Shown piece after piece: positions 2,936-50,367 of a DNA stretch of 60,452 nucleotides; position 1 is the first letter of the stretch, and every line of letters begins with the position of its first letter. The stretch is from Candidatus Woesearchaeota archaeon (GTDB lineage: Archaea > Nanobdellota > Nanobdellia > SCGC-AAA011-G17 > GW2011-AR18). Below the pieces are notes generated by a model, which was given only the letters and a program-made list of their open reading frames with translations, made no database searches and had not been told where the DNA came from. Position numbers and translations under genes: made by a program. The stretch lies in NCBI GenBank assembly GCA_018302105.1, contig JAGWAD010000038.1, forward strand, positions 1-60,452, given 5' to 3'.

Positions 2936-5329
2936 TTAAAATCCTCTAATTTTGCCAAGTAAAATATTTCTTTCAATAGAAGCTACTAATTTTCTGGTTT
3001 TATTTACAACATCAGGATTTACTGAAATGCTTGTTATTCCTTCTTTAATTAAAAATTCGACTATTTCAGGATATTCGCTAGGAGCCTGACCACAAATTCC
3101 AATTGTCTTACCATGTTTTCTAAAACCTTTAATTATATTACTTATAGCTTTTAATACAGCAGGATTTCTTTCATCAAAATATCCCATTCTCCCAAGTTTA
3201 GCACTATCACGGTCAATCCCTAAAACACCCATAGTTAAGTCATTACTTCCAATTGAAGCCCCGGTAATAGGAAGCTCAGCAAATTCTTCAGCTATGAATG
3301 CAATTGCAGGAACTTCAGCCATTAAATAAATTCCAAAGTCATTTGATTTAACTAAACCTTCACTTTTTAAAATATCAAGACATTTTATAACTTCTAAAGT
3401 AGTTCTTACAAAAGGCAACATTACATAAACATTTTTTAATCCTTGATCTCTACATTTTTTTATAGCTTTTAATTCTAATTTAAATGCCTCAATAAAATCT
3501 GGTGATACATATCTTGAAACTCCACGCCAACCAATTAAAGGATTTTCTTCATGAGGTTCAAATTGTTCTCCACCCTGCAAATTTTTATATTCATTTGTTT
3601 TAAAATCTGAAAATCTTACAATTATTGGCCTGGGAGAAATATCTCTTGCAACTTTTTCTATTCCATTAGATAATTTATCAATATATTCTTGTTGTTGTCC
3701 TGTTTGTATCATATACAAAGGATGTTTTCCTACACTCTCTGTAATAATAAATTCTATTCTCATTAATCCAATACCATCAAAAGGTAGTTTACCATAATCA
3801 TCAATTTTATCAGGTTCTCCTAAATTCATGTAAATTTTGGTACCAGTAACAAGATTATTATCGCTTACATCGTCATTTAAACTAGAACTATTCTGAGCTT
3901 GGGTTTGTACTATACTATTTTGTTGTATATTAATATTATTTTGACCTTTGTAAACAATACCGCTTGTTCCATCCACAGTTATCAAGTCACCATCGTGCAA
4001 TATTTTTGTTGCCTTTTCAGTTCCGACAATACATGGGATTCCCATTTCTCTACTTACAATCGATGCATGGGAAGTCAGACCCCCTTCATCAGTGACAATA
4101 GCAGAAGCTTTTCTCATAACAGAAACAAAATCTGGTGTTGTCATTCTTGTTACTAAAACATCTCCAAGTTCTATTTTATTTAGTTCATCCATATTTAACA
4201 CAATTTTTACTTTACCAATTCCAACGCCAGGACTTGCACCCATTCCTTCCAGTAATTTTTCAGAATTATTTTCTATAGTTTGTACATTCTCATCTTTCTT
4301 ATTATGTTTTAGTGTCGTAACAGGTCTTGTCTGTACTAGGTAAATTTTTCCATTTTCAGTTGCCCATTCAGAATCCATTGGTTTTCCATAATAATCCTCT
4401 AACGCCTTACCGTATTTCGCAAGTCCGATAATCTCTTCTTCACTTAATTTCTGTCTGCTTCCTTCATTTTCACTTAAATTATTTCTGATATTTTTTCCAG
4501 TAAATTTATCTCTAAATAAACCATATTCCTGTCTTGCAACTTTCTTAGACTTTATTCCCATTGTCAGTTTATCAACGATGTAAGTATCAGGTGTTATCTC
4601 CCCGCCAACAACAGTTTCTCCCAAACCAAATGCACCTTCTATCATAATTTCACTTTCATTATTTGTTGCAGGATTAATAGAAAACATTACTCCACTTTTT
4701 TCACTGTTTACCATTTTTTGCACAACAACAGCAATGTATACTTTATCATGCGGATAATTATTTTTAACCCTATAATAAATTGCTCTTGCAGTAAATAAAG
4801 AAGCCCAGCATTTTTGTACAGCCAAAACTAATTCATCTTTTCCTTTTACATTTAAATAAGTTGCTTGCTGGCCCGCAAAAGATGCGCTTGGTAAATCTTC
4901 TGCAGTAGCTGAACTTCTAACAGCAACAAAAGGTAATTCTCTTCCAGTTTTGATAAAACTATTTAAAACATCATGACCAATTACTTTATTTATTGCCTGA
5001 TCAACATTCATATCTTCATAAGCTTCTACTATAGCCTTTTTTATCTCAATAGGCATTTGTGCATCCAGAATTATTTCCTGTATTTGTTCAGAAGCCTGCT
5101 GCAATTTAGCAGTATCTTCAACATCTAAATTCTTTACAACATTTAAAATTTTATTTTGAATTCCAGTAGTCTCAACAAAATATTTGTAAGCTGGCGCTGT
5201 TACAACAAATCCAGGAGGCACTGGCAATTTCAAATTATACATAATTCCTAAGTTTTCTCCTTTACCTCCAACTAAAGGAAGATTATTCTTTGTAATCTCA
5301 GAAAACCATACAATGGGGGAATCTCTCAT
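2936..5329 (-). CDS. ppsA: phosphoenolpyruvate synthase (pyruvate, water dikinase)
   Basis: 797 aa. N-terminal ATP-grasp motif LVGGKGENLG, phospho-His swivel motif GGLTSHASIVSREMGIPCIVG, and a C-terminal PEP-utilising TIM-barrel region (..GSNDLTMG..). Confidence 0.95.
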   Translation of the reverse strand: MRDSPIVWFSEITKNNLPLVGGKGENLGIMYNLKLPVPPGFVVTAPAYKYFVETTGIQNKILNVVKNLDVEDTAKLQQASEQIQEIILDAQMPIEIKKAIVEAYEDMNVDQAINKVIGHDVLNSFIKTGRELPFVAVRSSATAEDLPSASFAGQQATYLNVKGKDELVLAVQKCWASLFTARAIYYRVKNNYPHDKVYIAVVVQKMVNSEKSGVMFSINPATNNESEIMIEGAFGLGETVVGGEITPDTYIVDKLTMGIKSKKVARQEYGLFRDKFTGKNIRNNLSENEGSRQKLSEEEIIGLAKYGKALEDYYGKPMDSEWATENGKIYLVQTRPVTTLKHNKKDENVQTIENNSEKLLEGMGASPGVGIGKVKIVLNMDELNKIELGDVLVTRMTTPDFVSVMRKASAIVTDEGGLTSHASIVSREMGIPCIVGTEKATKILHDGDLITVDGTSGIVYKGQNNINIQQNSIVQTQAQNSSSLNDDVSDNNLVTGTKIYMNLGEPDKIDDYGKLPFDGIGLMRIEFIITESVGKHPLYMIQTGQQQEYIDKLSNGIEKVARDISPRPIIVRFSDFKTNEYKNLQGGEQFEPHEENPLIGWRGVSRYVSPDFIEAFKLELKAIKKCRDQGLKNVYVMLPFVRTTLEVIKCLDILKSEGLVKSNDFGIYLMAEVPAIAFIAEEFAELPITGASIGSNDLTMGVLGIDRDSAKLGRMGYFDERNPAVLKAISNIIKGFRKHGKTIGICGQAPSEYPEIVEFLIKEGITSISVNPDVVNKTRKLVASIERNILLGKIRGF

Positions 5330-12782: not shown

Positions 12783-12800
12783 TTTTAGTTAAAATTGAAC

Positions 12801-13068
12801 GTAGGCATGCCTGAAAGTGGACACAACTATCCTACTAAGTTTAACCCCGGCCATTCCTCAATCCCGCGCCCCTAAAAGCATTGACATAATTGCTTAGTGT
12901 TGCTCCATTCCTGGCCTCACACCCTTCGCAATCATGACAACCAATCAGGACAGAATATCCTTGTAGTTGCCAAGACTTAGCAAAATAATCATGCCGCCTT
13001 CCAAGCTTCAGCTCTGCTAAAGACCGTTTACAGTTACAGGTGCGGCCTAAACACCCAGCCTAGCCTAC
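12801..13068 (-). ncRNA. ffs: signal recognition particle RNA (archaeal 7S/SRP RNA)
   Basis: GC-rich island. Minus-strand read: 5' GUAGGCUAGGCUGGGUG..CCUGUAAC.. (Alu-domain motifs) .. GUGAGGCCAGGAAUGGAGCAACAC (helix-8 GGAA-loop/AGCA motif) .. GCCUAC 3', with the 5'/3' ends complementary. Confidence 0.85.
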
Positions 13069-13160
13069 AAATAAATAAGGTATTAAAACTTTAAAAGAGT
13101 TTTGGAATATTTTTTATAAGCTTTAAAAACATTTAAATAAAATAAAATACTAAATATTCT

Positions 13161-36965: not shown

Positions 36966-37054
36966 TATTTATTCTAAAATTTAGGAATATATAAAACTTA
37001 TCAAATAATTATAAATTCAAAAAGTTTTAAAAGTAAGGTTAATAATCCAAATTT

Positions 37055-38443
37055 ATGGAAGAAATGATAGGTTTGGAAATTCACGTAGGTCTCAACACTG
37101 AGAGTAAATTATTTTGCTCATGTAAAATATCAGAAGATGCAAGTCCAAACAGTCATACTTGCGATATTTGTGTTGGTTTACCAGGATCAAAACCAGTTTT
37201 AAATAAAAAAGCATTTGAGTATGCATTAAAACTATGCTTGGCATTAAACTGTGAAATATCTCCAGAACTTATATTTTCAAGAAAAATTTATTTTTATCCA
37301 GATATGTCTAAAAATTATCAGATAACCCAATATGAAATACCTTTGGGAAACAATGGAAAATTAAGTTTAACAAATAAGGAAATAAAAATAAGTAGAATCC
37401 ATATAGAAGAAGATCCGGCAGCATTAATCCATCAGGGATCAACTGTATTAGTAGATTATAATAGATCTGGCACTCCATTATGTGAAATAGTTACAGAACC
37501 AGACATGAGTTCTCCAGAAGAAGCAAGAGAATTTCTAAAAAAATTATTGACAATATTAAATTATCTAAAAATATTTAACATTAAAACAGGAATTATAAAA
37601 GCAGATGCAAATGTAAGTATTAAGCCATATGAAAGAGTTGAAATAAAAAATATTAATGGATTTAAAGAAATTGAAAGAGCAATAAATTATGAAATACAAA
37701 GACATAAAGAATTAATTAAAGAAAATAAGCCAGTAACTAAAAGAGAAACAAGAGGCTGGGATTCAGAAAAAGGAATAACTTTATTTCAGAGATCAAAAGA
37801 AGAAGAAGCAGATTATGGTTATATTATTGATCCAGATTTAGTTCCAGTTGATGTCACAAAAGAATTAATTGAAAAAACAAAAAATGAACTTCCAGAATTG
37901 CCAAAAGAAAAATCATTAAGATATCAAGAAGAATACAAAATAAAAAAAGAAGACGCAGAAGTAATAAGCAATGATTTTGAACTTGCATCCTTATTAGAAT
38001 CATCTGTCTCCAATAAAATAAATCCAGTTTTTGCTTCTGAATGGATAAGAAGAGAAGTTACAAGAGTTTTAAATTATAATAAAAAAGAATTAGATGAAAC
38101 TTTTATCTCAAAGCATTTAATTGAAGTAATGGAATTAATAAAAGACAACAAAATAACAAGACAGACAGGACAAAAATTAATGGAACTCCTTATTGAAAAA
38201 GATTTAGGTGTAAAAAAATATGTTTTAGATAACAATCTATCTTCTCTTTCAGATACAAAAGAATTGGGAAAAATTTCTTTAGAAGTTATTAAAAATAACC
38301 AGAAAGCAGTAAAAGAATATTTAGAAGGCAATGAAAAATCTTTTAATTTCTTAGTTGGTCAGATTATGAAATCTACAAAAGGAAAAGGAGATCCTAAAAT
38401 AATAAATGAATTATTAAAAAAATTAATACAGAATCAAAAATAA
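37055..38443 (+). CDS. gatB: Asp/Glu-tRNA amidotransferase subunit B
   Basis: MIGLEIHVGLNTESKLFCSC.. N-terminus, ..GLPGSKPVLN.., ..DYNRSGTPLCEIVTEPD.., and a C-terminal YqeY-like tail. Confidence 0.92.
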   Translation: MEEMIGLEIHVGLNTESKLFCSCKISEDASPNSHTCDICVGLPGSKPVLNKKAFEYALKLCLALNCEISPELIFSRKIYFYPDMSKNYQITQYEIPLGNNGKLSLTNKEIKISRIHIEEDPAALIHQGSTVLVDYNRSGTPLCEIVTEPDMSSPEEAREFLKKLLTILNYLKIFNIKTGIIKADANVSIKPYERVEIKNINGFKEIERAINYEIQRHKELIKENKPVTKRETRGWDSEKGITLFQRSKEEEADYGYIIDPDLVPVDVTKELIEKTKNELPELPKEKSLRYQEEYKIKKEDAEVISNDFELASLLESSVSNKINPVFASEWIRREVTRVLNYNKKELDETFISKHLIEVMELIKDNKITRQTGQKLMELLIEKDLGVKKYVLDNNLSSLSDTKELGKISLEVIKNNQKAVKEYLEGNEKSFNFLVGQIMKSTKGKGDPKIINELLKKLIQNQK

Positions 38444-39612: not shown

Positions 39613-41634
39613 TTAATGGCTGCAAGTCATCCTGGTACAATTTTCCATCCTGAAATCACCATCTTCTAAATGTAAAACTTGCTTTCCTTTGCTGCCGTAT
39701 CTAAAAACAGTTATTCCTTTACATTTTAATCTATAAGCTAATAAATATGATTTTCTTACAGCTTCTTTATTTGCATTTTCAGGAAGGTTTACAGTTTTAG
39801 AAACACCATTATCCACATATTTTTGAAAAGCTGCTTGCATTCTAATATGCCATTCAGGGTGAATATCAAAAGCAGTCACAAAAATTTTTTTTACATTATT
39901 CGGTATTGAATTAATTCCTTGTAAACTTCCTTGTTTTGCAGTTTCATCCATTAATTCTTTTGAATAAAATTTTCTTTGCATTGCAATTTCCTCAAAATTT
40001 TTGTTTATTTCAATAAGATGAGAACCTGCTAAAGCTTCTCTTATATAACTTACTGCAAACAAAGGTTCAATTCCGGAAGAACAGTCATTTGCAATTATAC
40101 TTATTGTTCCTGTTGGAGCTATAGTTGTCACAGTTAAATTTCTCATAGAATCATATTTACTTTTTAATTCACTCTTGTAAAAATTTGGAAAATTTCCTCT
40201 TTTTAATCCCAATTCAGAAGATTTTTCCCTTGCTTTATTTTGTATAAATTGCATTATTTTTTCTGCAAATTTTAAAGCCTCATTGCTGTCATACTTAACA
40301 TTTAATTTAATTAAAAAATCTGCCCAGCCCATGATTCCCAATCCAATTTTTCTATTTGAAAATGTTGCTTCTTTTATCTTTTCATCAATATAATAATTAG
40401 CATCAATAATATTGTCTAAAAAATGGACAGCTATCCGAACGACGATTTTAAGTCTTTCCCAATCTATTTTTCCACTATTAACAAATTTGCTTAAATTAAT
40501 ACTCCCAAGCACGCATGACTCATAGTCGAGTAATGGTTGTTCTCCACAAGGATTTGTAGCTTCAATTTTTTTATTTATTCCATGTTTTCTATTAATTTCA
40601 TCAATAAAAATCAACCCAGGATCTCCGTTTTCCCATGCTTCTTCCACAATAGTCTCAAATAATTTTCTTGCATTTAATTTAGCAAATAATTTATTATTAA
40701 ATTTTAAATAGTGATCTTTATTTTTTAACACTGCCTGCATAAATTTATCTGTAACAGCAACTGAAATATTAAAATTAGAATTATTACATTTATCTTTACA
40801 TTTAATAAACTGGATTATATCAGGATGTTCTACATCTAAAATTCCCATATTTGCTCCTCTTCTTCTTCCACCAGCTTTTATTACTTCAGTCATTTTATCA
40901 AATAATTCTAAAAACGATAAAGGCCCTGACGCAGTACCTTTCGTCGTCCCTACAATATTACCTTCAGGTCTTAATTTCGAAAAAGAAAATCCAGTTCCTC
41001 CCCCAGTTTTTTGAATTAGTGCAGCTAATTTTAAACTGTCAAAAATACTATCCAGACTGTCTGGTATTGGCAAAGTAAAACAAGCACTCATTTGTTGTAC
41101 AGAAGTTCCTGCATTCATCAAACAAGGACTATTAGGTAAAAACTCAAAATTTTTCATAATTTCAAAAAATTCTTCTCTGCTTTTTTCTGCATTATCACCA
41201 TATTTTAAATCAACTACAGAAACAGCATTGCTAACCCTACTTAACATTTGTAACGGAGTTTCTACTACATTCCCTTTTTCATCTCTTAACAAATATCTTT
41301 TCTGTAAGACCTTAATTGCATTTAAATTTAATTTTAAATCATCTTGTTTTAATTCATTTATTCTATTTTGTTTATAATTTTTAACAATATCTAAATAATT
41401 TAAGTCACTTAAAACCTTCTCTATAATATTAACTGCATCAATTATATTAGGTATTTTCCCTTTAAATTTTTCAAATAAAACTTTTTCAATTTTATCAACA
41501 ATAAGATTAATATCTGTAATATGCTGATTTGCAGAAAAAGCAGCATGAGTAATTGAAGTCATAATCCTATTTCTATCAAATTTAACTATAGTTCCATCTC
41601 TTTTTCTTATATAGGAAATTTTTCTTTTAAACAT
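39613..41634 (-). CDS. nrdJ: class II (adenosylcobalamin-dependent) ribonucleotide reductase with N-terminal ATP-cone
   Basis: ATP-cone ..[16 protein letters not shown]... Catalytic region ..[23 protein letters not shown].. (radical Cys loop). ..TIAPTGTIS... C-terminal Cys pair ..CTRMTCSH. Confidence 0.9.
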
Positions 41635-41975
41635 AAAACCTCTTTTCTAATATATAGAATCAGTTATATAATTTAAATATCTTTCTAAGTCTAAATTAGA
41701 AAACTTAGACAAACTTGAAAGACTTTTTTATTGAATAAAATAGTTATAAACTTTCTTTACAAAAATTTTAGAGTTTCTTCACTGCCTCTATAAAAATCAG
41801 GGTTTGCTATTTTAAAATGATTACAAAAAAGGAGGTTATGACACTAGTTATTTTATGTTTATACAGCTCATAAACCCAATTTAACAATGACTTCGTATAT
41901 ATATAGTTATACGCAATCGTAAGAGATGCCTACACGAAAGGCTTTGTTTAATTAGTCCTTATTTTAGCTTACATT

Positions 41976-43235
41976 TTAAACACTCTCCTGACTTTTTAAA
42001 CAGAATTGAGGATTAATGTTTAATTCATAAACGGCTTCAATTAAGCAACAGATATTATGACATAACACTTTCAATAATAATTCATTTACTTGTGCAATTT
42101 TGGTTTTACTTCTTAGATAATCTCCCAATTTAGATTTTATCATATGGTTTGTTGTTTCTATATTGCTTCTTAGATGGTAATGTTCTAAGAATTCTTCTTT
42201 GTTAAACTGGAAGTAATGAAACATTTTATTCCATGTGCTTGAACCTCTGCTTTTTCCAGTAGCGTTATCCTTGAATGGAATAAAAGCCGTTCCACCTAAC
42301 GAATTTACTAAATCGTGATTTTCTCTGCTTGAATAAGCCTTATCTCCAGTTACTTCATCTATTCTAAAGTTCTCTGCTGTTTTTTCTATTAATGGCTTGA
42401 ATTCTGGACAATCATTAGAATATTCTCCTGTTATTGATACTGCTGTAACTATATTGGTTTTTATTCCTACGCTTAAATGTGCTTTAACCCATTGCCTATA
42501 TCTCATGTCCTTTTGGTGCTTGTAACTAAAATATCTTGCAAATCTACAAGTAGAGAATCCACTACTATCTACTGCAAATTTAGTTTCTACACTTTTTAAT
42601 GGCAATGAACTTAATTGTATTAGGTTTTGGAGAATAGACGTTAGTTCAGGTTTATTCATTATGTTACTTATCGTTACATAATTACATGGCTTCTCTATGT
42701 ATTTCTTTTCTAATGCTATGTTTGTCATTCCAGTAAATCTTCTTAATGAAAAAGTTGAGTAAACCTTTAATGCCGATAAGTATATTCCGTCTTGCAAAGG
42801 GAATGATGGTCTACCAAACCCATATTCTTGCTGTTTGACATTCTTAACTAAGTCAGCCATTAGTTCCATAAATAAAGGCTGTTCATTGCACTTAGCCTTA
42901 TTATAACTCTTCCAGTCTTGAGGATAGCTTACTTTAATGGTCTTAGTTTGTGTTATTACAGTGTTTCCTTCATTATCAATTTTTACTTCTTGATTTAATA
43001 TGTATTCAACTGCGTAGATATGTTTACATTTTCCTTTTCTTGTTTGATAATCTGGGCAGTCGCATTCTTCTTTCATACTAGACATTTTTACAATATAATT
43101 TCCCATTCCAAACTGGCTAGGAACTTTAAAGTCTCCTTTGTCAGTTCTAGTAATATTATATTTTTGGGCAATTATCTGTCCTCGTTCTTCTCTTGTCAGG
43201 TTCTTGTAGTTTGTTTCGTTTAGGTTGGTTTTCAT
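41976..43235 (-). CDS. DDE transposase (IS5/IS4-like) with N-terminal SWIM zinc finger
   Basis: SWIM: CDCPDYQTRKGKCKHIYAVEY. DDE candidates ..FAVDSSGFST.., ..VTGDKAYSS.., ..IETTNHMIKSKLG..; 419 aa. Confidence 0.85.
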   Translation of the reverse strand: MKTNLNETNYKNLTREERGQIIAQKYNITRTDKGDFKVPSQFGMGNYIVKMSSMKEECDCPDYQTRKGKCKHIYAVEYILNQEVKIDNEGNTVITQTKTIKVSYPQDWKSYNKAKCNEQPLFMELMADLVKNVKQQEYGFGRPSFPLQDGIYLSALKVYSTFSLRRFTGMTNIALEKKYIEKPCNYVTISNIMNKPELTSILQNLIQLSSLPLKSVETKFAVDSSGFSTCRFARYFSYKHQKDMRYRQWVKAHLSVGIKTNIVTAVSITGEYSNDCPEFKPLIEKTAENFRIDEVTGDKAYSSRENHDLVNSLGGTAFIPFKDNATGKSRGSSTWNKMFHYFQFNKEEFLEHYHLRSNIETTNHMIKSKLGDYLRSKTKIAQVNELLLKVLCHNICCLIEAVYELNINPQFCLKSQESV

Positions 43236-43255
43236 TGTTTATTATCCTTTACTTA

Positions 43256-43272
43256 TATACCTAATAGGTATA
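43256..43272. promoter_or_regulatory. perfect 17-bp palindrome TATACCTA-A-TAGGTATA (extends imperfectly over about 43250-43279); third TAGGTATA at 43311-43318
   Basis: Read directly from the sequence. It lies in the divergent spacer between the transposase start (43235) and the Zn-ribbon/MTase operon (43393). Confidence 0.35.
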
Positions 43273-43392
43273 GTAAGTATATAAAGATTATTGTGGTGTA
43301 GTATATCAATTAGGTATATAACATTAAACATAACTTAATCTTATATATATTATAACACATATCTTTAAATATAAAAAGAAACTATTAAATAC

Positions 43393-43587
43393 GTGAAAAA
43401 CATCATTAATAGCACGAAAGAGGGTTTTGGTGTAGGCGTTCTTATAAAAGGTAATCGTTGTTATCGTTGTGAGCATTTTTGGGTTCCTAGAGATGAAAAT
43501 AAAGTTGCCACCATATGCCCTTCTTGTAAAAGCCCTTATTGGAAAACTCCTAAAACAAGATTTAAAAAGGGAGAGAAGAAAAGATGA
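43393..43587 (+). CDS. small zinc-ribbon protein (GTG start), translationally coupled to the MTase
   Basis: CYRC..(17)..CPSC forms a CxxC/CxxC pair with a basic C-terminus. Its stop overlaps the MTase ATG (ATGA at 43584-87). Confidence 0.55.
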   Translation: MKNIINSTKEGFGVGVLIKGNRCYRCEHFWVPRDENKVATICPSCKSPYWKTPKTRFKKGEKKR

Positions 43588-44975
43588 AAAGTTTACAAAA
43601 AAACGGAAAACTTTTCAGAAAAAAAGGCACAAGCAATATTAATTCTAAATACTATAATAAAAGGATGTCAAATAATTTAAGCATACAAATTCAAAAAAAT
43701 AAGCCTACAGTTGTTAGTTTATTTTCTGGATGTGGGGGTTTAGATTTAGGATTCAAGAATGCTGGATTTGAAATAATCTGGGCTAATGATTTTGATAAAG
43801 ATTCTGTAGAAACATATAAAAGAAATATTGATAATAGAATAGTTCATGGGGACATAACAAAAATATCTAGTTCTGAAATACCTAAAAATGCAGACGTTTT
43901 ATTGGGTGGTTTTCCATGCCAGAGTTTTTCTGTTGCAAATAATAAAAGAGATGTGAAAGATAAAAGAAATTTTTTATATAAAGAGATGTTAAGAATAATA
44001 AAAGATACTCAACCTAAATTCTTTATAGCAGAAAATGTTAAAGGGATATTATCCCTTGGAAATGGAAAAGTGATAGATATGATAATAAAAGATTTTAATT
44101 CAATAGGATATAAAGTAGAAAAACCATTTATTATTAATTGTGCATATTATGGAGTTCCACAATTTAGAGAAAGAGTAATAATTATGGGAAATAGAATTAA
44201 TGCACCAAATACATTTCCGAAAATAACTCATAAGAATGGATATAAGACTCCGATTCCAGATTTTATAAAACCTGAAGATTATCATAATTTACCATATGTA
44301 ATATCGGTAAAAGAAGCGATAGAACATTTACCAGAACCAAATACACCAGAAGGTAAAAATATTCCCAATCACATTGGTTCTAATAAAGTAAGTGGAAAAT
44401 ATGTTGCAAGAAAAAATGAAATAGACCAAGCAGAAATATGCGATTATCTTAAAACATGGAGAACTAAAGCAAAGATAACAACGCATAAAATAGATGAAAT
44501 TTTAGGTTATAGACATACAGCAGGACACTGGTTTAGAAAAGATATATCTGGTTCTATACCCTCACCTAAAGACTGGGCTAAACTAAAAAACATTTTAGGT
44601 TTCGATAATAAATATGATAGATTAGTTACAGAAGTTGAGATAAGAAGAATAAAGTTTGAACAATCATTAAGAGTTACTAACTGGGATAGACCAAGCGATA
44701 CTATAACTGCAAGTGTTCCAGAGATTCATATAAACAAGAAAAGAAGATTAACAGCAAGAGAATGTGCTATACTTCAAAGTTTCCCAAATAACTTTGTATT
44801 TTATGGAAGCCTATCAAGTCAACATAGACAGATAGGAAACGCAGTACCACCATTAATAGGTGAGCATTTAGCTAGAGAAATTAAAAAATATATTGAAAAT
44901 ACTAATCCAGAAAAACATTGGAAAGAGTTAAAAATGGTTAATACTACGTTAATTGGTGGAACTTACCAATACTGA
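43584..44975 (+). CDS. dcm: DNA (cytosine-5)-methyltransferase
   Basis: Motif I VVSLFSGCGGLDLGF, motif IV GGFPCQSFS, motif VI FIAENVKG, motif VIII QFRERV, motif X QIGNAVPP. The N-terminal about 27-aa basic extension may not be translated. Confidence 0.92.
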   Translation: MKSLQKNGKLFRKKGTSNINSKYYNKRMSNNLSIQIQKNKPTVVSLFSGCGGLDLGFKNAGFEIIWANDFDKDSVETYKRNIDNRIVHGDITKISSSEIPKNADVLLGGFPCQSFSVANNKRDVKDKRNFLYKEMLRIIKDTQPKFFIAENVKGILSLGNGKVIDMIIKDFNSIGYKVEKPFIINCAYYGVPQFRERVIIMGNRINAPNTFPKITHKNGYKTPIPDFIKPEDYHNLPYVISVKEAIEHLPEPNTPEGKNIPNHIGSNKVSGKYVARKNEIDQAEICDYLKTWRTKAKITTHKIDEILGYRHTAGHWFRKDISGSIPSPKDWAKLKNILGFDNKYDRLVTEVEIRRIKFEQSLRVTNWDRPSDTITASVPEIHINKKRRLTARECAILQSFPNNFVFYGSLSSQHRQIGNAVPPLIGEHLAREIKKYIENTNPEKHWKELKMVNTTLIGGTYQY

Positions 44976-45654
44976 ACTAGTACAATTAGAAAAAAAGTAT
45001 ATGGATATTGTATGCAATATTCTTTCTAATAATATTGGAAGATTCGTTAATGAAATCAATAGCCAAAAACATATGCCTGAATACTTACCTACAAATAAGG
45101 TAAACCCTATTGAGACCGCTTCTGAAAATATCATGAACGCAATGATTGCAAGACGTTTAGATTGGGGAGTAGCTTCAATGCAAGGAGCATCTGATTCTTG
45201 TTACGAATGTGGCGATGCAATAATTCACATAGACGCCAAAACAATTTTAGATACTGATGGAGATGCTAGAAAAAAGAGCAATAGAATAGATATAAGACAA
45301 AATCAAACTTCTTTTGATTTTGATTATGCTCATAAAGTAAAACACTCAAAAACTCATAAAGAATATACTTGGAAACCAAAATTACATAGATATGAAAACC
45401 ACGCACTTTTTGGAAAAGTACCTAACCTTAGTTATATATTAAGAGTGACTTGGTCACAAAAGAATCTTGTAGAAGAAATATCTTTTATCTGTATTCCTAA
45501 TGGACAATTCTTTAATACCCATCAAACTATTCTGGCTGGTGTAAAATCATATCCTAATGAAGGTACAGATTTGGAACACATAAGATTTGATATTAAAAGG
45601 CTAATAGAAATAGACAACTGGAGAGAAAAGGTAATTTACAAAAGAATTAACTAA
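44953..45654 (+). CDS. candidate type II restriction endonuclease (family not recognised)
   Basis: Sits immediately downstream of, and overlapping, the MTase. Possible PD-(D/E)xK: ..CGDAIIHIDAKT... TTG start in the track; ATG at 45001 is more likely. Confidence 0.5.
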   Translation: MVELTNTELVQLEKKYMDIVCNILSNNIGRFVNEINSQKHMPEYLPTNKVNPIETASENIMNAMIARRLDWGVASMQGASDSCYECGDAIIHIDAKTILDTDGDARKKSNRIDIRQNQTSFDFDYAHKVKHSKTHKEYTWKPKLHRYENHALFGKVPNLSYILRVTWSQKNLVEEISFICIPNGQFFNTHQTILAGVKSYPNEGTDLEHIRFDIKRLIEIDNWREKVIYKRIN

Positions 45655-45664
45655 AATAGACTTA

Positions 45665-45710
45665 TTAAACAAGATTAGCACTTTTTAAACAAACATTACT
45701 TATTAAACAA
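45665..45710 (+). promoter_or_regulatory. three TTAAACAA repeats (45665, 45685, 45703) upstream of the DUF5680-like gene; the outer two are part of a 13-bp direct repeat ACTTATTAAACAA
   Basis: Read directly. Spacing is 20 and 18 bp, 37-82 nt upstream of ATG 45747. Confidence 0.3.
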
Positions 45711-45746
45711 AGCCAGCTTTATTAATTCACCAATTTTACTAATTTT

Positions 45747-46229
45747 ATGGAGAAAAAAACACTTTTAGATTTCATAGCAAAGGCACACAGGCATACTTAT
45801 GCCGCACCAAAAGAAGTCAGAAAACAACATAGGTGTGAGGTGCCCATTCAAGAAGGTCATAAAGATTATGAATTTGTAGAAGAAGATTTAAGATATCACG
45901 ATTCTTATGCAGGAAGCCAATGGGCACCCGGAAGAGAAGTTGTTTTCTTCCAAGAAAATCCTATTTGGTGCATGGCATATCAAGGACAACATAATCCAAA
46001 ATTCGATGACGCTTTTTTCCAAGAACAAGCATTTCCCTTTCTGAAAAAAGCTCTAATGAATTTTGATGATAGTGTGCCTTTTAGAGGACCTAAAGAATTC
46101 TCTGATGGAGATTTTAAATATACTTTTGAAATGGAAGGCGATTATGATTATTTCAAAGGACAAGAGAGAATTCTTTATAGAGGAGAAAGTGTTTTTTTCC
46201 AAGATGTGATGGGTTCATTAATAAAATAG
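45747..46229 (+). CDS. conserved hypothetical protein, DUF5680-like (tentative)
   Basis: 160 aa; ..AKAHRHTYAAPKE..YHDSYAGSQWAPGREVVFFQENPIWCMAYQG... Resembles DUF5680-type proteins known mainly from bacteria (from memory). Visibly GC-richer than the surrounding genes. Confidence 0.55.
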   Translation: MEKKTLLDFIAKAHRHTYAAPKEVRKQHRCEVPIQEGHKDYEFVEEDLRYHDSYAGSQWAPGREVVFFQENPIWCMAYQGQHNPKFDDAFFQEQAFPFLKKALMNFDDSVPFRGPKEFSDGDFKYTFEMEGDYDYFKGQERILYRGESVFFQDVMGSLIK

Positions 46230-46485
46230 GACGGCATCTCTTACGACTTCTTCGGAATTTTTTCAAAATTCCTCGACCATGTTGCACTCTCGCCTTCGGC
46301 TCGGGGCGTATAACAGGTATTATGTTCAATAAGCTCTCCGAGAAATAGATTAAAATAATAAAATAAGCATCTTCATTATTAAATTAAGAGGAGTAATTCA
46401 ACTCGTATTGAGAGCTTACTCTTCGTCGCTTCGCTCCTAGTCCTCATTTCATTCGGAGAACTTAACAAGGGAAGCCATCCCACAA

Positions 46486-46761
46486 TTATATCGAAGAAGT
46501 GAAGAAATTTCTCAAGAACACAAAAGAGACATAGCTCTCTCTATTAATCCTCTTATTTTCCCTTATCATTCGATGAATTTTTCCTAAATTATGTGCAATT
46601 GAAATTAAATTCATTTCAATTTTAACTTTCTCGAGACCTCGCAAGAGAAATTCTCTAAATCCGAGGTTCTGTTTTATGTGGCCATACACAGGTTCCACAG
46701 TAACTTTTCGTAAGGAATAAAAGCCATATTTTCCAGAGAAATAAGGCAAACAGAAAATCAA
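46486..46761 (-). pseudogene. C-terminal remnant of an IS1182/IS5-type transposase
   Basis: ..VTVEPVYGHIKQNLGFREFLLRGLEKVKIEMNLISIAHNLGKIHR.. matches the conserved extreme C-terminus of these transposases. There is no N-terminal catalytic part and only a pseudo TTG start. Confidence 0.7.
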
Positions 46762-46802
46762 AACCTAATAAAGATTATAAATAGCAAAATTTTCTTAAGT
46801 GG

Positions 46803-48683
46803 ATGCAATTATTATTTTCACATGAATCAATAAGAGAATCACAAAAAGAGTTAATAGATGAAATATTAAATACTATAAAAAATAAATCAAGTTTATTAGT
46901 ACATGCCCCAACTGGATTAGGCAAAACAAGTGCTGCAATCTGTCCAGCATTATCTTATGCTTTAGAAAATAAATTAACAGTAATTTTTGTAACTCCAAAA
47001 CATACGCAGCATAAAATAGCAATAGAAACAATAAGGACAATAAAAGAAAAATACAATTTAGATTTTGCAGCAATTGATTTGATAGGAAAAAGAAGCATGT
47101 GCGCCCAGCCAGGCGTTATTTCAATGTCACAAAATGAATTTACAGATTATTGCAAAGATATGATAGGTAACAAAGCCTGCCATTATTATAACAATATTAA
47201 AAATAAAGAAAAGTTAAGTTTACAGACAGAAGCTTTACTAAAAGAAATAAAAACAAAAGCCTTGCATGTTGAAGAATTAAAAGAATTATCATCAAAAAAT
47301 AAACTATGTCCATATGAAGTTTCAATTATTTTAGGAGCAGCTTCAAAAGTGATTGTTGCAGATTATCACCACATCTTAAACACTTCAATAAGAGAAAATT
47401 TGTTGACTAAAATAAATAAAGACTTATCAGAAGTAATAATCATATTTGATGAAGCCCATAGTATCCCAGAAAGATGCAGAGAATTATTAAGTTCACAAAT
47501 ATCAACATTAACAATTGATTTGGCAGCAAAAGAAGCAAGAAATTTAAAATATGAGGAAATTGGTTTCAATATACTAAAATTAAGAAATATTCTGGAAAAG
47601 TTAGTAAGTGAAAAAACAAGTTTTGAATCAAAAGAAGGACTTGTAAAAAAAGAAGAATTCATTAATTTAGTAAACAATGATTTAAATTATGAAGAATTAG
47701 TTAAAAATGTAGCATTTATAGCAGAAGAATCTGAAGATACAAAGAAACGTAGTTTTGCTAAATCTTTATATTCATTTTTGCTAAATTGGCAAGGCCCGGA
47801 TAATTCATTTACAAGAATAATTAAAAAAGGATTTACAGAAAAAGGACATGGAATAATAACTTTAAGTTACAAATGTTTAGACCCTTCATTAATAATAAAA
47901 CCCATAGTAGAAGATAGTTATTCAACAATTTTTATGTCAGGAACACTAAATCCAATTGAAATGTATAAAGATTTATTTAACACAAATTCAAAAGGAGTAG
48001 AATATAAAAATCCATTTCCAAAACAAAATAAATTAAATATTATAGTTCCAGACACTACTACAAAATTTACAGCAAGATCTCCTGAAATGTATAAGAAAAT
48101 AGCAGAGTATTGTGCCTCTATTTCAAATTCAGTCCCTGGAAATACAGCAATATTTTTTCCAAGTTATAAAATAAGAGATGAAATAAACAATTATTTCAAA
48201 ATACTATGTAATAAAACTACATTTTTAGAATCTTCTGGTTTATCGAAACAGGAAAGAACAGAATTAATAGAAAGATTCAAGCAATACGAAAAATCAGGAG
48301 CAGTTTTGCTTGCAGCATCAGCAGGTTCTTTTGGAGAAGGAGTAGACTTTCCTAAAAATATTTTAAAATGTGTCATTGTAGTTGGGATCCCATTAGACAA
48401 ACCAGATTTAGAAACACAGGAATTAATAAATTTTTATGATAAAAGATTCAAAAAAGGTTGGGATTATGGTTATGTTATGCCTGCATTGATAAAATGTTTT
48501 CAGAATGCTGGCCGTTGTATAAGATCAGAAAACGATAAAGGGGTAATTATTTATTTAGATCAAAGATATTTATGGGAAAGTTATTTTAAATGTTTTCCAA
48601 AAGATATTAATTTAAGAATTACAAAAGAGCCCTTGCCTAAAATAAAAGAATTTTTTGATGAGCATAATATCACTCAATCATGA
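46803..48683 (+). CDS. xpd: XPD/Rad3-type Fe-S DNA helicase
   Basis: Walker A VHAPTGLGKT, DEAH box IIFDEAHSI, four Fe-S cysteines (RSMCAQPG, DYCKD, NKACHYY, KLCPYE), and C-terminal helicase motifs (..GSFGEGVDFP.., ..QNAGRCIRS..). Confidence 0.9.
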   Translation: MQLLFSHESIRESQKELIDEILNTIKNKSSLLVHAPTGLGKTSAAICPALSYALENKLTVIFVTPKHTQHKIAIETIRTIKEKYNLDFAAIDLIGKRSMCAQPGVISMSQNEFTDYCKDMIGNKACHYYNNIKNKEKLSLQTEALLKEIKTKALHVEELKELSSKNKLCPYEVSIILGAASKVIVADYHHILNTSIRENLLTKINKDLSEVIIIFDEAHSIPERCRELLSSQISTLTIDLAAKEARNLKYEEIGFNILKLRNILEKLVSEKTSFESKEGLVKKEEFINLVNNDLNYEELVKNVAFIAEESEDTKKRSFAKSLYSFLLNWQGPDNSFTRIIKKGFTEKGHGIITLSYKCLDPSLIIKPIVEDSYSTIFMSGTLNPIEMYKDLFNTNSKGVEYKNPFPKQNKLNIIVPDTTTKFTARSPEMYKKIAEYCASISNSVPGNTAIFFPSYKIRDEINNYFKILCNKTTFLESSGLSKQERTELIERFKQYEKSGAVLLAASAGSFGEGVDFPKNILKCVIVVGIPLDKPDLETQELINFYDKRFKKGWDYGYVMPALIKCFQNAGRCIRSENDKGVIIYLDQRYLWESYFKCFPKDINLRITKEPLPKIKEFFDEHNITQS

Positions 48684-49144: not shown

Positions 49145-49735
49145 TCATAAATCTAAAAGTCTTCTAATTTTATTTCTAAACCTTTCAGGATATCTTTCAA
49201 GATATTTATTTAATTTTTTCTCATTAATTATTTTTTTTATCTTCATTAAGATTTTTCTGTCAAGCTTACTGTTAAAGATTATAAGATCAATAAATGTTTT
49301 CTCTACATCGGAATATGGCAAATAAAAATCTCCTTCTTTTACAAATTCAAATCCAAAAAAATATTTCTTATCAATATTTCTTATAAGTATATTTCTTCCA
49401 AGTACTTTTCTAATACCTCTTCTTACTTTTTTTGTTGTTAATATTATAGGTACCGTCTCTTGTTCCCATATACCAAAATGGCTTAAAGAACTTTGTAGCC
49501 CTAAATAAGCAGGTTTAAAAACAAAAACAGCCAGAGATATATCCTCATGAATTGTATAAACACCCTTTCCAATCTTTTTTATTTTTTCTTTATCCAATAA
49601 ATTATGGATTAATAATTTAGTATAACTGCTGTGTTTATTTTTACTTTTTATTATTCTTTTTATAGAATTAAACTCTACTACTGGACTTTTCCTAAATAAT
49701 TCTTCTATTTTTTTTAAATGTATTTGTTTTCCCAT
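49145..49735 (-). CDS. AbiEi-like (COG5340-type) wHTH antitoxin/transcriptional regulator
   Basis: N-terminal wHTH-like ..FNSIKRIIKSKNKHSSYTKLLIHNLLDKEKIKKIGKGVYTI... Paired with, and overlapping by 22 nt, an AbiEii-type NTase gene. Confidence 0.6.
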   Translation of the reverse strand: MGKQIHLKKIEELFRKSPVVEFNSIKRIIKSKNKHSSYTKLLIHNLLDKEKIKKIGKGVYTIHEDISLAVFVFKPAYLGLQSSLSHFGIWEQETVPIILTTKKVRRGIRKVLGRNILIRNIDKKYFFGFEFVKEGDFYLPYSDVEKTFIDLIIFNSKLDRKILMKIKKIINEKKLNKYLERYPERFRNKIRRLLDL

Positions 49736-50367
49736 TTTCTTTTAATATATTCTATCATTTCATTTGCTGTAGGTACAATGCCCTCAAGTAATATAATCTT
49801 CAAGTCTCCTTCATCAATTGGATCCTTATAATTTTTAATTAATTTTTCAATTTCCTTTATCTTTTGTGGGTTTTCTATATTTTTTAACAAAAAGAAAACA
49901 TCCCATAAATCCCTAACTTTAAATCTCTTAAGATATGTATTCAATTTCTCTACTAAAAAAATTTCTGGAGTTAAACTATAAATAACTGTTATAGTACCAT
50001 CAGACATTTCATAATCACAAATAATTCCTGCTACTTTCTGGAATGTTGCTTCTAATCTAACTGGTGTCCTGTCAAGCTCTAATTCTGAATAAACACTATT
50101 TTCTGATATTTTTTTCTTCTTGATTTTGAACCCTAATTTTTTTAAATTATCAAACAACAAATTTATTTTTTCATTTTCTTTAGACAGATAAAAATCTAGA
50201 TCTTCAGAAAACCTTTTTCCATGATAACATCGCCATATGCCTGTTCCACCGTGCAGGACAGCAGTATTAAAGACTGTATAAACCTCTTTTATTATCAAAT
50301 CCTGAGCATAGGCTATTTTTCTATGTGATTCTCTCTTCAATCTTACTTGTAAAGGTATTTTTTCCAT
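49714..50367 (-). CDS. AbiEii/AbiGii-family nucleotidyltransferase toxin
   Basis: ..AVLHGGTGIWRCYHGKRFSEDLDFYL.. matches the GGT.L...R.S.D(I/L)DF signature of AbiEii NTases; 217 aa. Confidence 0.78.
   Translation of the reverse strand: MEKIPLQVRLKRESHRKIAYAQDLIIKEVYTVFNTAVLHGGTGIWRCYHGKRFSEDLDFYLSKENEKINLLFDNLKKLGFKIKKKKISENSVYSELELDRTPVRLEATFQKVAGIICDYEMSDGTITVIYSLTPEIFLVEKLNTYLKRFKVRDLWDVFFLLKNIENPQKIKEIEKLIKNYKDPIDEGDLKIILLEGIVPTANEMIEYIKRKWENKYI

Follow-up and report, generated by a model that had tools for sequence, protein, structure and literature searches.

The transfer of restriction-modification (R-M) systems from genome to genome is in most cases a matter of inference, and a locus of contig JAGWAD010000038.1, from a Candidatus Woesearchaeota archaeon, raises the question of whether such movement can be seen directly. 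The window, by which we mean the whole 60,452-nt stretch of this contig (28% G+C), carries between the nrdJ and XPD genes a predicted SWIM-DDE transposase, a small Zn-ribbon protein, a C5 cytosine DNA methyltransferase, and a type II restriction endonuclease. Do these genes form a mobile element, and where does it begin and end? An earlier note on this DNA had proposed a mobile unit between nrdJ and XPD, and this part of the proposal is borne out: one natural population displays an empty site, a target-site duplication, and an identical unit with a second set of flanks, which together demonstrate mobility instead of leaving it to guesswork. We are highly confident that positions 41940 to 45714 (3,775 bp) constitute one autonomous transposon, a "transporter insertion sequence" (tIS) of the IS5 family with IS903-type ends, which moved as a unit, since empty sites, duplications of TACACGAAA, and an identical copy with second-site flanks all exist.

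Sister contigs delimit a 3,775-bp transposon

Contigs encoding exactly the same transposase, endonuclease, and DUF5680 protein (the latter from the gene that follows the element) were looked up, and ∼30 were retrieved, which stem from aquifer metagenomes (record names "groundwater.metagenome," ANAN16 scaffolds). In alignments, all contigs that depart from the window do so exactly at 41940 (L003 and L006 to L008) or at 45714 (L001), the outer edges of a pair of inverted 13-mers, and two others (L002 and L005) terminate at 45714. An empty site is found in five contigs (L011, L014, L015, L018, and L020), in which nrdJ is directly followed by the DUF5680 gene (nrdJ...TCGTAAGAGATGCC-TACACGAAA-GAAAGCTTT...DUF5680); the junction reads ...TCGTAAGAGATGCC TACACGAAA GAAAGCTTTATT..., with TACACGAAA single and the element absent. 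In two occupied contigs (L012 and L009), the element has TACACGAAA at each side, a perfect 9-bp duplication.

The left copy of the duplication lies at 41931 to 41939 (no strand assigned) and abuts the terminal inverted repeat (IR) of the transposase-3′ end (IRR in the IS convention), GGCTTTGTTTAATTAGTC, at 41940 to 41957 on the plus strand. The IR of the cargo end (IRL), ...TACTTATTAAACAAAGCC, lies at 45697 to 45714, also on the plus strand. The two ends, GGCTTTGTTTAATTAGTC and GGCTTTGTTTAATAAGTA, are perfect over the first 13 nt and complementary at 17 of 18 nt. A repeat search of the window revealed two direct copies of ACTTATTAAACAA on the plus strand (45660 to 45672 and 45698 to 45710), the outer of which is part of the terminal IR; as judged from their sequence and placement, they are candidate subterminal transposase-binding sites.

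These boundaries differ from those first proposed, which relied on a ∼36-nt IR read as split into 14-mers and 13-mers. The four oligomers are indeed found at the expected positions (TCGTAAGAGATGCC at 41917 to 41930, GGCTTTGTTTAAT at 41940 to 41952, ATTAAACAAAGCC at 45702 to 45714, and GGCATCTCTTACGA at 46233 to 46246), and the distance of 24 nt between the end of the left repeat and the transposase stop (41976) is confirmed. The contention that such matches are very unlikely by chance receives no such support from the statistics of the window alone: exact inverted 13-mer pairs ≤6 kb apart number 98, a composition-corrected information ranking of the window's inverted repeats places the 13-mer 11th and the 14-mer 1st, and the information value of the 14-mer was matched or exceeded in 48 of 200 order-2 Markov shuffles. 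It is because of the comparative contigs, and not of the statistics, that both repeat pairs can be called real and yet two separate features, the 13-mers ending the transposon and the 14-mers being host DNA in the empty-site contigs. By the breaks in contig homology, the unit is therefore 3,775 bp long and not 4.3 kb, and the supposed 9-nt spacer between the half-repeats is the left copy of the target-site duplication, of which L012 and L009 carry two.

The earlier note had seen no target duplication, which is correct for the window and incorrect for the sister contigs. The duplication is invisible in the window because 12 nt (tacacgaaagaa, comprising the right TACACGAAA copy plus 3 nt) are missing directly after 45714, at 45714/45715, relative to all sister contigs. 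This loss could be a real deletion or an artifact of assembly or curation.

An identical element with a second set of flanks

Besides the nrdJ-DUF5680 site (site 1), the sister contigs reveal flanks of a second site. Four contigs (L003 and L006 to L008) enter the element from a different left flank, ...CAAAGTTGG-element, and L001 leaves it into a different right flank, element-CAAAGTTGG..., while the element itself is identical at 3,775 of 3,775 positions in contigs of both flank sets. The duplications pair the flanks, TACACGAAA joining left1 with right1 and CAAAGTTGG joining left2 with right2. With E standing for the element, the combinations seen are left1-E-right1, left1-E-right2, and left2-E-right1, the last of which was recovered from four samples and by two assembly pipelines (L003, L006, L007, and L008); left2-E-right2 was never seen among the 16 to 20 contigs read.

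Two genotypes account for all contigs, namely, a single site-1 copy and its one-step duplicative-inversion derivative. We infer that the flanks of sites 1 and 2 were exchanged reciprocally by intramolecular replicative transposition of the kind reported for IS903B. In such an event in trans, the element would be duplicated, the intervening DNA would be inverted, and the duplications would be swapped; an inversion with swapped duplications is the product of intramolecular replicative transposition in trans, an activity cited for IS903B (PMC4471558). An alternative source of the flank exchange is homologous recombination between two inverted copies, which leaves an identical pattern.

Two contigs show further variation around the element. 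At L019:2140-2265, a deletion of ∼3.8 kb (window equivalent, about 41901 to 45684) has removed 39 nt of the left flank and nearly the whole element, and of the element only the 30 nt at the right extremity remain, along with the right duplication, which shows that loss of the R-M-bearing element is not lethal to the lineage. Between 38054 and the element, L001 hardly differs from the window; over the first ∼1 kb of gatB (window positions 37054 to 38054), it shows ∼58 mismatches per 250 nt, with a different gene order further upstream. This gatB stretch looks like a recombination tract or a strain breakpoint.

DUF5680 is a resident gene of the insertion site

The DUF5680 protein, recognized by a profile match, is encoded at 45747 to 46229 on the plus strand. 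It had been taken for a cargo cassette lying inside the IR, a view that we revise, the gene being a resident of the host and present in the empty-site contigs. Both 14-mers are found in those contigs as well, 544 nt apart and flanking DUF5680, and in shuffles of the reconstructed empty window an equally information-rich exact inverted repeat spanning ≤700 nt occurred in 3 of 400 cases. The uninterrupted locus (L011:5930-6510) is bracketed by an imperfect inverted repeat of ∼60 to 75 nt made of three segments: the outer 14-mer (41917 to 41930 and 46233 to 46246), a TTTATTAAT segment, and a second exact 14-mer, GAAAAAAACACTTT/AAAGTGTTTTTTTC. In this inner pair, GAAAAAAACACTTT at 45752 to 45765 (codons 2 to 6) matches AAAGTGTTTTTTTC at 46186 to 46199, in the 3′ coding end. 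The left arm of this repeat contains the point at which the transposon inserted. When folded as RNA, the 581-nt region forms a terminal 5′/3′ panhandle (z-score, −4.7), which raises the question of whether the repeat serves mRNA end pairing or belongs to a cassette. A search for DUF5680 homologs in viral contigs returned one weak partial match, which shed no light on the repeat.

A SWIM-containing relative of the IS903 transposase

The transposase gene (41976 to 43235, minus strand) encodes 419 residues with DDE_Tnp_1 and SWIM domains (Pfam E values of 2.4e-23 and 4.8e-6, respectively), the N-terminal SWIM zinc finger occupying residues 53 to 79. The classification that the earlier note had recommended places it in the IS5 family: it displays the DDE core of that family (D223, D298, and E360) and the Y-2-R-3-E-6-K motif, and in an alignment of 42 homologs, the triad and Y353/R356/E360/K367 are invariant. 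The best NCBIfam model is transpos_IS5_2 (NF033579), matched over residues 107 to 395 with a borderline score of 140.9 bits against a cutoff of 140; three related transposases fall below this cutoff, at 118 to 140 bits. The IS903B transposase (Tnp), from plasmid Rts1, matches the same model with 356 bits and aligns over its full length with the window transposase (22% identity, E = 2e-9). The alignment begins at residue 107, which makes the first 106 residues, including the SWIM finger, an extension.

IS903B has the ends GGCTTTGTTGAATAAATC and 9-bp direct repeats (PMC10569121), and IS903-group elements are ∼1.05 kb long, carry a transposase only, and generate 9-bp direct repeats (PMC3281130). 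The window element shares the 9-bp duplication (both TACACGAAA and CAAAGTTGG) and the ends, with IRs in the ∼15- to 27-bp range starting with GGC (GGCTTTGTTTAATTAGTC/GGCTTTGTTTAATAAGTA), but not the compactness of the group: instead of ∼1.05 kb with a ∼300-aa transposase alone, it has 3,775 bp, four open reading frames (ORFs), and a transposase of 419 aa with a SWIM domain. Its ends and duplication length are therefore IS903-like, and its catalytic core, as judged from sequence, is that of a distant IS903-type DDE enzyme; its size, gene content, and SWIM extension are not IS903-like. With a single transposase gene, a single IR pair, direct repeats, and passenger methyltransferase and endonuclease genes moved as a unit, the element has the makeup of a tIS and not of a composite (compound) transposon.

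We presume that the encoded transposase moves the element. The SWIM-DDE protein would bind the 17- to 18-bp terminal IRs (GGCTTTGTTTAAT...), and staggered 9-bp cuts would insert the whole unit, giving rise to the 9-bp target duplication.

A Zn-ribbon gene accompanies the transposase

The repeat search also detected, in the intergenic region between the divergent transposase and Zn-ribbon genes, a palindrome with 23-nt arms of 87% complementarity (43253 to 43321, no strand assigned), a candidate operator or promoter region. The Zn-ribbon gene (43393 to 43587, plus strand) encodes 64 residues with the pattern CxRCxHxWxPR...CPxCKSPYW and weak zinc-ribbon matches in Pfam. In 24 loci whose cargo varies, a tblastn search found homologs that lie directly upstream of the transposase gene and are divergent from it, and a motif scan found the pattern in 24 of the 75 loci having enough upstream sequence, whatever the cargo. 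The gene is thus a recurrent accessory of the transposase lineage. It does lie inside the terminal IRs, as first described, but it belongs with the transposase and not with the R-M module. A role as R-M controller (C protein) was considered and rejected, as the gene accompanies related transposases regardless of cargo.

A type II R-M module with a BglI/SfiI-like endonuclease

The methyltransferase ORF (43584 to 44975, plus strand; 463 aa) matches the Pfam DNA_methylase family (E = 8e-79) and TIGR00675 dcm (E = 1.9e-73), and its closest relatives of solved structure are M.HaeIII (E = 1.4e-51) and M.HhaI. Its true start is likely M28 at 43665, giving a 436-aa form, which also appears in the cluster listing. 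In the variant contig L010, an 87-nt deletion (window equivalent, 43572 to 43658) takes away the 3′ end of the Zn-ribbon gene together with codons 1 to 25 of the long methyltransferase ORF, which fits M28 as the real start.

The 3′ end of the methyltransferase gene overlaps by 20 nt the frame of the endonuclease gene (44956 to 45654, plus strand), which encodes 232 aa with a BglI/SfiI/MwoI-type fold and a PD-(D/E)XK motif. It has 62 homologs of about 220 to 247 aa, and in an alignment of 33 sequences, D80 and K95 are invariant, D93 is present in ≥90%, and a GDAIIHIDAKT block contains the end of the motif D80...D93-A-K95. The AlphaFold2 model of the endonuclease (pLDDT, 89.3; pTM, 0.87) matched, in a Foldseek search of the PDB, BglI (1dmu; E = 2.6e-12; TM score, 0.73) and SfiI (2ezv; E, about 6e-9), whereas a sequence search against the PDB gave no match. 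A Pfam scan of a 233-aa form (44953 to 45654) hit Endonuc_BglI with E = 5.6e-4 and 19.7 bits, under the 25-bit cutoff, and the precomputed Pfam annotation lists PF27366 (MwoI_N) on the endonuclease, marked as weak, and on its homologs. Its fold and motif place the protein among the type II endonucleases that cleave interrupted palindromes.

The type II-like R-M module announced in the earlier note is thus complete and lies inside the IRs, with separate, adjacent methyltransferase and endonuclease genes whose catalytic motifs are intact. We infer activity of the module and a benefit to the element, which would come from defense of the host and from postsegregational killing that penalizes loss.

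A family of cargo-carrying archaeal transposons

The transposase has 4,612 homologs at E ≤ 1e-10, nearly all of about 400 to 435 aa. Where the source is named, it is Nanoarchaeota, Woesearchaeota, Aenigmarchaeota, or simply "archaeon." DPANN and other uncultivated archaea account for most of the homologs, some of which are located in predicted viral contigs. When one genome per GTDB species was scanned, the search returned only one partial and distant relative, in a Thermoplasmatota metagenome-assembled genome. Metagenomes scanned with the 42-sequence transposase alignment provided 80 loci, in which we delimited elements by an exact 9-bp direct repeat abutting ends complementary at ≥12 of 16 positions, with no end sequence imposed. 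Complete elements, of 2.5 to 8.4 kb, were delimited in 31 cases; the 9-bp duplication that all 31 share is the search criterion itself. GGCTTTG stands at both ends in 27 of the 31; in the remaining 4 (L063, L074, L076, and L085), the first or fourth base deviates from this at one end or at both (AGCTTTG, TGCTTTG, or AGCCTTG/GGCATTG). In none of the 80 loci were IR-like ends found close to the transposase on both sides, that is, no transposase-only ("naked") IS was detected. A vestigial inner IR near 43323 to 43335 in the window, considered as a trace of a 1.4-kb ancestral IS, was rejected as unsupported, there being no such ends in these loci.

The 31 elements contain 126 cargo ORFs, and DNA methyltransferases (N6_Mtase, N6_N4, C5, or D12 class) are present in 17 of the 31. 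Several of these 17 encode single-chain nuclease-methyltransferase enzymes. L069 and L091 combine an HSDR_N_2 nuclease domain, N6_Mtase, and Eco57I in one chain, and an ORF of L102 has the same size and position as that of L091. A type I S domain accompanies HSDR_N and N6_Mtase in L048, whereas N6_Mtase occurs with Eco57I domains in L049, L055, and L073 and with HsdM_N in L053. BglII-family endonucleases occur in two elements and an NgoFVII-type endonuclease in one, and Vsr, PIN, and ParE proteins are also found among the cargo. Ten more complete elements lie in IMG/VR contigs, and IMG/VR contigs classed as viral or proviral (L124, L126 to L129, L131, L135, L137, and L141), hold 3.7- to 6-kb members with GGCTTTG-type ends and 9-bp duplications.

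The mobility of whole units is independently proven within the family by L091 and L102, in which a single 4,154-bp element occupies two unrelated sites, with a separate 9-bp duplication at each and with homology that stops exactly at the terminal repeats. A 5,042-bp relative (L039:3039-8080), with perfect 17-bp ends and the duplication AACTTAGCC, sits between the ribosomal-protein genes L18e and L13/S9 and carries a BglII-type R-M system beside the transposase, a MazE-like ORF, and other small genes. The duplicated end motif of the ACTTATTAAACAA type is present in this element and in that of L036, which has two small passenger ORFs; even these two, among the closest relatives, thus have cargo. 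The element at L063:4604-8275 has the same gene order as that of the window (endonuclease, methyltransferase, Zn-ribbon protein, and transposase), with amino acid identities of 88% for the methyltransferase and 85% for the endonuclease, compared to 50% for the transposase and 34% for the Zn-ribbon protein; at the nucleotide level, the R-M segment is 82% identical and the transposase segment 65%. These values suggest that R-M cassettes are exchanged between transposon lineages, unequal evolutionary rates being the alternative.

On balance, we lean toward the view that these elements form a large family of archaeal cargo transposons, apparently not described so far, whose hallmarks are a SWIM-IS5 transposase, IS903-type ends, 9-bp duplications, and in many cases a divergent Zn-ribbon gene. 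Its members would never occur as a naked IS and would serve mainly as vehicles for R-M and other defense or addiction genes, with cassettes exchanged between lineages.

Alternative explanations

Several points weigh against the interpretation of the element as an autonomous transposon. All contexts come from short-read metagenome assemblies, in which the flanks are unphased across a 3.8-kb exact repeat, so that, instead of a real inversion, the flank combinations of L001 and L003 may reflect how the assemblers traversed two strains or copies. A contig in which the element is enclosed by both site-2 flanks was not found, nor was an empty site 2; the search, made through the UbiE-like neighbor of that site, gave one relative, 92% identical, whose intergenic DNA is too diverged at the junction. 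The window copy itself lacks the right-hand duplication. The transposase, at the NCBIfam cutoff and with 22% identity to IS903B Tnp, is a distant relative, and the transposase, methyltransferase, and endonuclease activities are predictions. Counts of candidate sites in the window point to no recognition sequence by avoidance (GCN7GC, 51 observed versus 40 ± 6 expected; GCCN5GGC, 1 versus 1.3; GGCC, 33 versus 49 ± 6.5).

How far do these points favor other explanations? That the transposon runs from 41917 to 46246, over 4.3 kb, with DUF5680 as cargo in a cassette that splits the ∼36-nt IR on the right, has next to no chance of being correct: both half-repeats are exact and in mirrored order, but the empty-site contigs retain the 14-mers, the 9-nt "spacer," and DUF5680 and lack 41940 to 45714 only, the second-site copies share nothing beyond this interval, and the 31 relatives end in GGCTTTG-type repeats that directly abut their 9-bp duplications. 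Scarcely more credible is a mobile transposase-only IS of ∼1.4 kb, with a decayed inner end near 43320 to 43336, next to resident R-M genes. Such an IS would resemble the classical IS903-group elements of ∼1.05 kb, and ATTAAACATAACT (43323 to 43335), ∼90 nt upstream of the transposase start, is a weak match to the IR (10 of 13 positions); yet the R-M genes are also missing from the empty site, the full 3,775 bp are identical with two flank sets, 0 of 80 related loci have IR-like ends near the transposase on both sides, and the Zn-ribbon gene, conserved in the family, lies beyond the putative inner end. We also find it improbable that the element is a dead relic that moved formerly or in trans and whose R-M module is inactive, as the lost right duplication of the window copy and the variants L010 (87-nt deletion at the methyltransferase start) and L019 (3.8-kb deletion with a 30-nt end remnant) might suggest. 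The four ORFs are intact with conserved catalytic residues. Very recent movement is indicated by the 100% identity of the copies found with two flank sets and by the presence of both empty and occupied sites in genomes that are otherwise ∼100% identical. A possibility to be taken seriously, although we consider it rather unlikely, is that no inversion took place and that L001 (left1-E-right2) and L003 (left2-E-right1) represent assembler paths through the repeat of two strains or two simple insertions. The exact repeat is indeed longer than short-read inserts, and L002 and L005 stop exactly at the element end, as at a branch of an assembly graph. Against this, left2-E-right1 recurs across samples and pipelines while left2-E-right2 is absent, and a single site-1 copy together with its duplicative-inversion derivative explains every contig.

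Other features of the window

Between DUF5680 and XPD, outside the transposon, a 91-aa ORF (46486 to 46761, minus strand) encodes a C-terminal fragment of an IS1182-family transposase, which represents an older, decayed insertion, because it is present in the empty-site contigs too. Adjoining this fragment, two G+C-rich blocks (46246 to 46335 and 46400 to 46470) stand out in a region of 28% G+C and have no Rfam match; the right flank of L001 (reverse strand) contains, ∼20 nt away from the second insertion site, a related sequence in which CATAAYCCYTGTTATACG precedes a GC-rich stretch. These blocks may be a small repeat element or the remnant of an IS end. Rfam searches detected nothing in or near the transposon, either at gathering thresholds on the whole window or at E ≤ 1 on 41600 to 46850, and a search for tRNA genes found none. 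Downstream of XPD, two overlapping ORFs (49145 to 50367, minus strand), of which the 217-aa one has an AbiEii domain (PF08843), are probably an AbiE-type toxin-antitoxin or abortive-infection pair. Finally, an archaeal signal recognition particle (SRP) RNA gene at 12799 to 13070 on the minus strand (Rfam RF01857; 126.7 bits) confirms that the host is an archaeon.

Significance and comparison with known systems

Given the tiny genomes of DPANN archaea and their dependence on hosts, gene flow and virus resistance in these organisms could be shaped by a transposon that installs a restriction barrier or takes one away. If our view of the family is correct, it would provide a dedicated transposon route for the spread of R-M systems among genome-reduced archaea. 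Its members are compact and well delimited, with short ends and a single transposase; they could be tested as archaeal genetic tools, and they hold many uncharacterized restriction enzymes.

In a survey of integrated elements of archaea, Krupovic et al. (2019) stated that no transposons with passenger genes had been detected in archaea (PMC6563490), and the words "passenger," "SWIM," and "IS903" are absent from a 2026 survey of archaeal IS. In the literature, to which access was partial, we found no description of IS903 elements with passenger genes. Within the same limit, we regard the element as a form of tIS, a known type, that is new in being of the IS5/IS903 type, archaeal, and often associated with R-M genes. 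It extends the tIS concept, confined to the IS1595 and IS66 families in a database description of 2021, to the IS5/IS903 lineage and provides a clear archaeal case of a cargo-carrying DNA transposon.

Of the known elements, IS903 and IS903B resemble that of the window in their ends, which begin GGCTTTGTT.AAT.A, in their 17- to 18-bp terminal IR, in their 9-bp duplication, and in their best NCBIfam model, NF033579. They differ in being ∼1.05 kb long with a transposase only, compared to 3.8 kb and three extra genes, in lacking the 106-aa N-terminal SWIM extension of a transposase with 22% identity to IS903B Tnp, and in residing in a proteobacterium instead of a DPANN archaeon. The tIS of ISfinder and TnCentral share with our element a single transposase, a single terminal IR pair, and passengers unrelated to transposition; the window element is distinguished by its IS5-family affiliation, its archaeal host, and the frequency of R-M genes among the cargo of its relatives. 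Tn7-like transposons likewise have cargo rich in defense genes, including R-M systems, but rely on an unrelated, heteromeric TnsABC(D/E) machinery with site-specific targeting and are much larger and mostly bacterial (PMC8649781). A further parallel is that of the transposon-like bacterial R-M units described in Xanthomonas and Neisseria by Furuta, Abe, and Kobayashi (2010), which have imperfect terminal IRs, 8-bp duplications, and matching empty sites; those units contain no intact cognate transposase, the authors could not tell what moved them, and no archaeal case survived their screen (PMC2853133). In both instances, an R-M system bracketed by IRs is revealed by an empty site, but the element described here has its transposase on board, and its design recurs in a large family.

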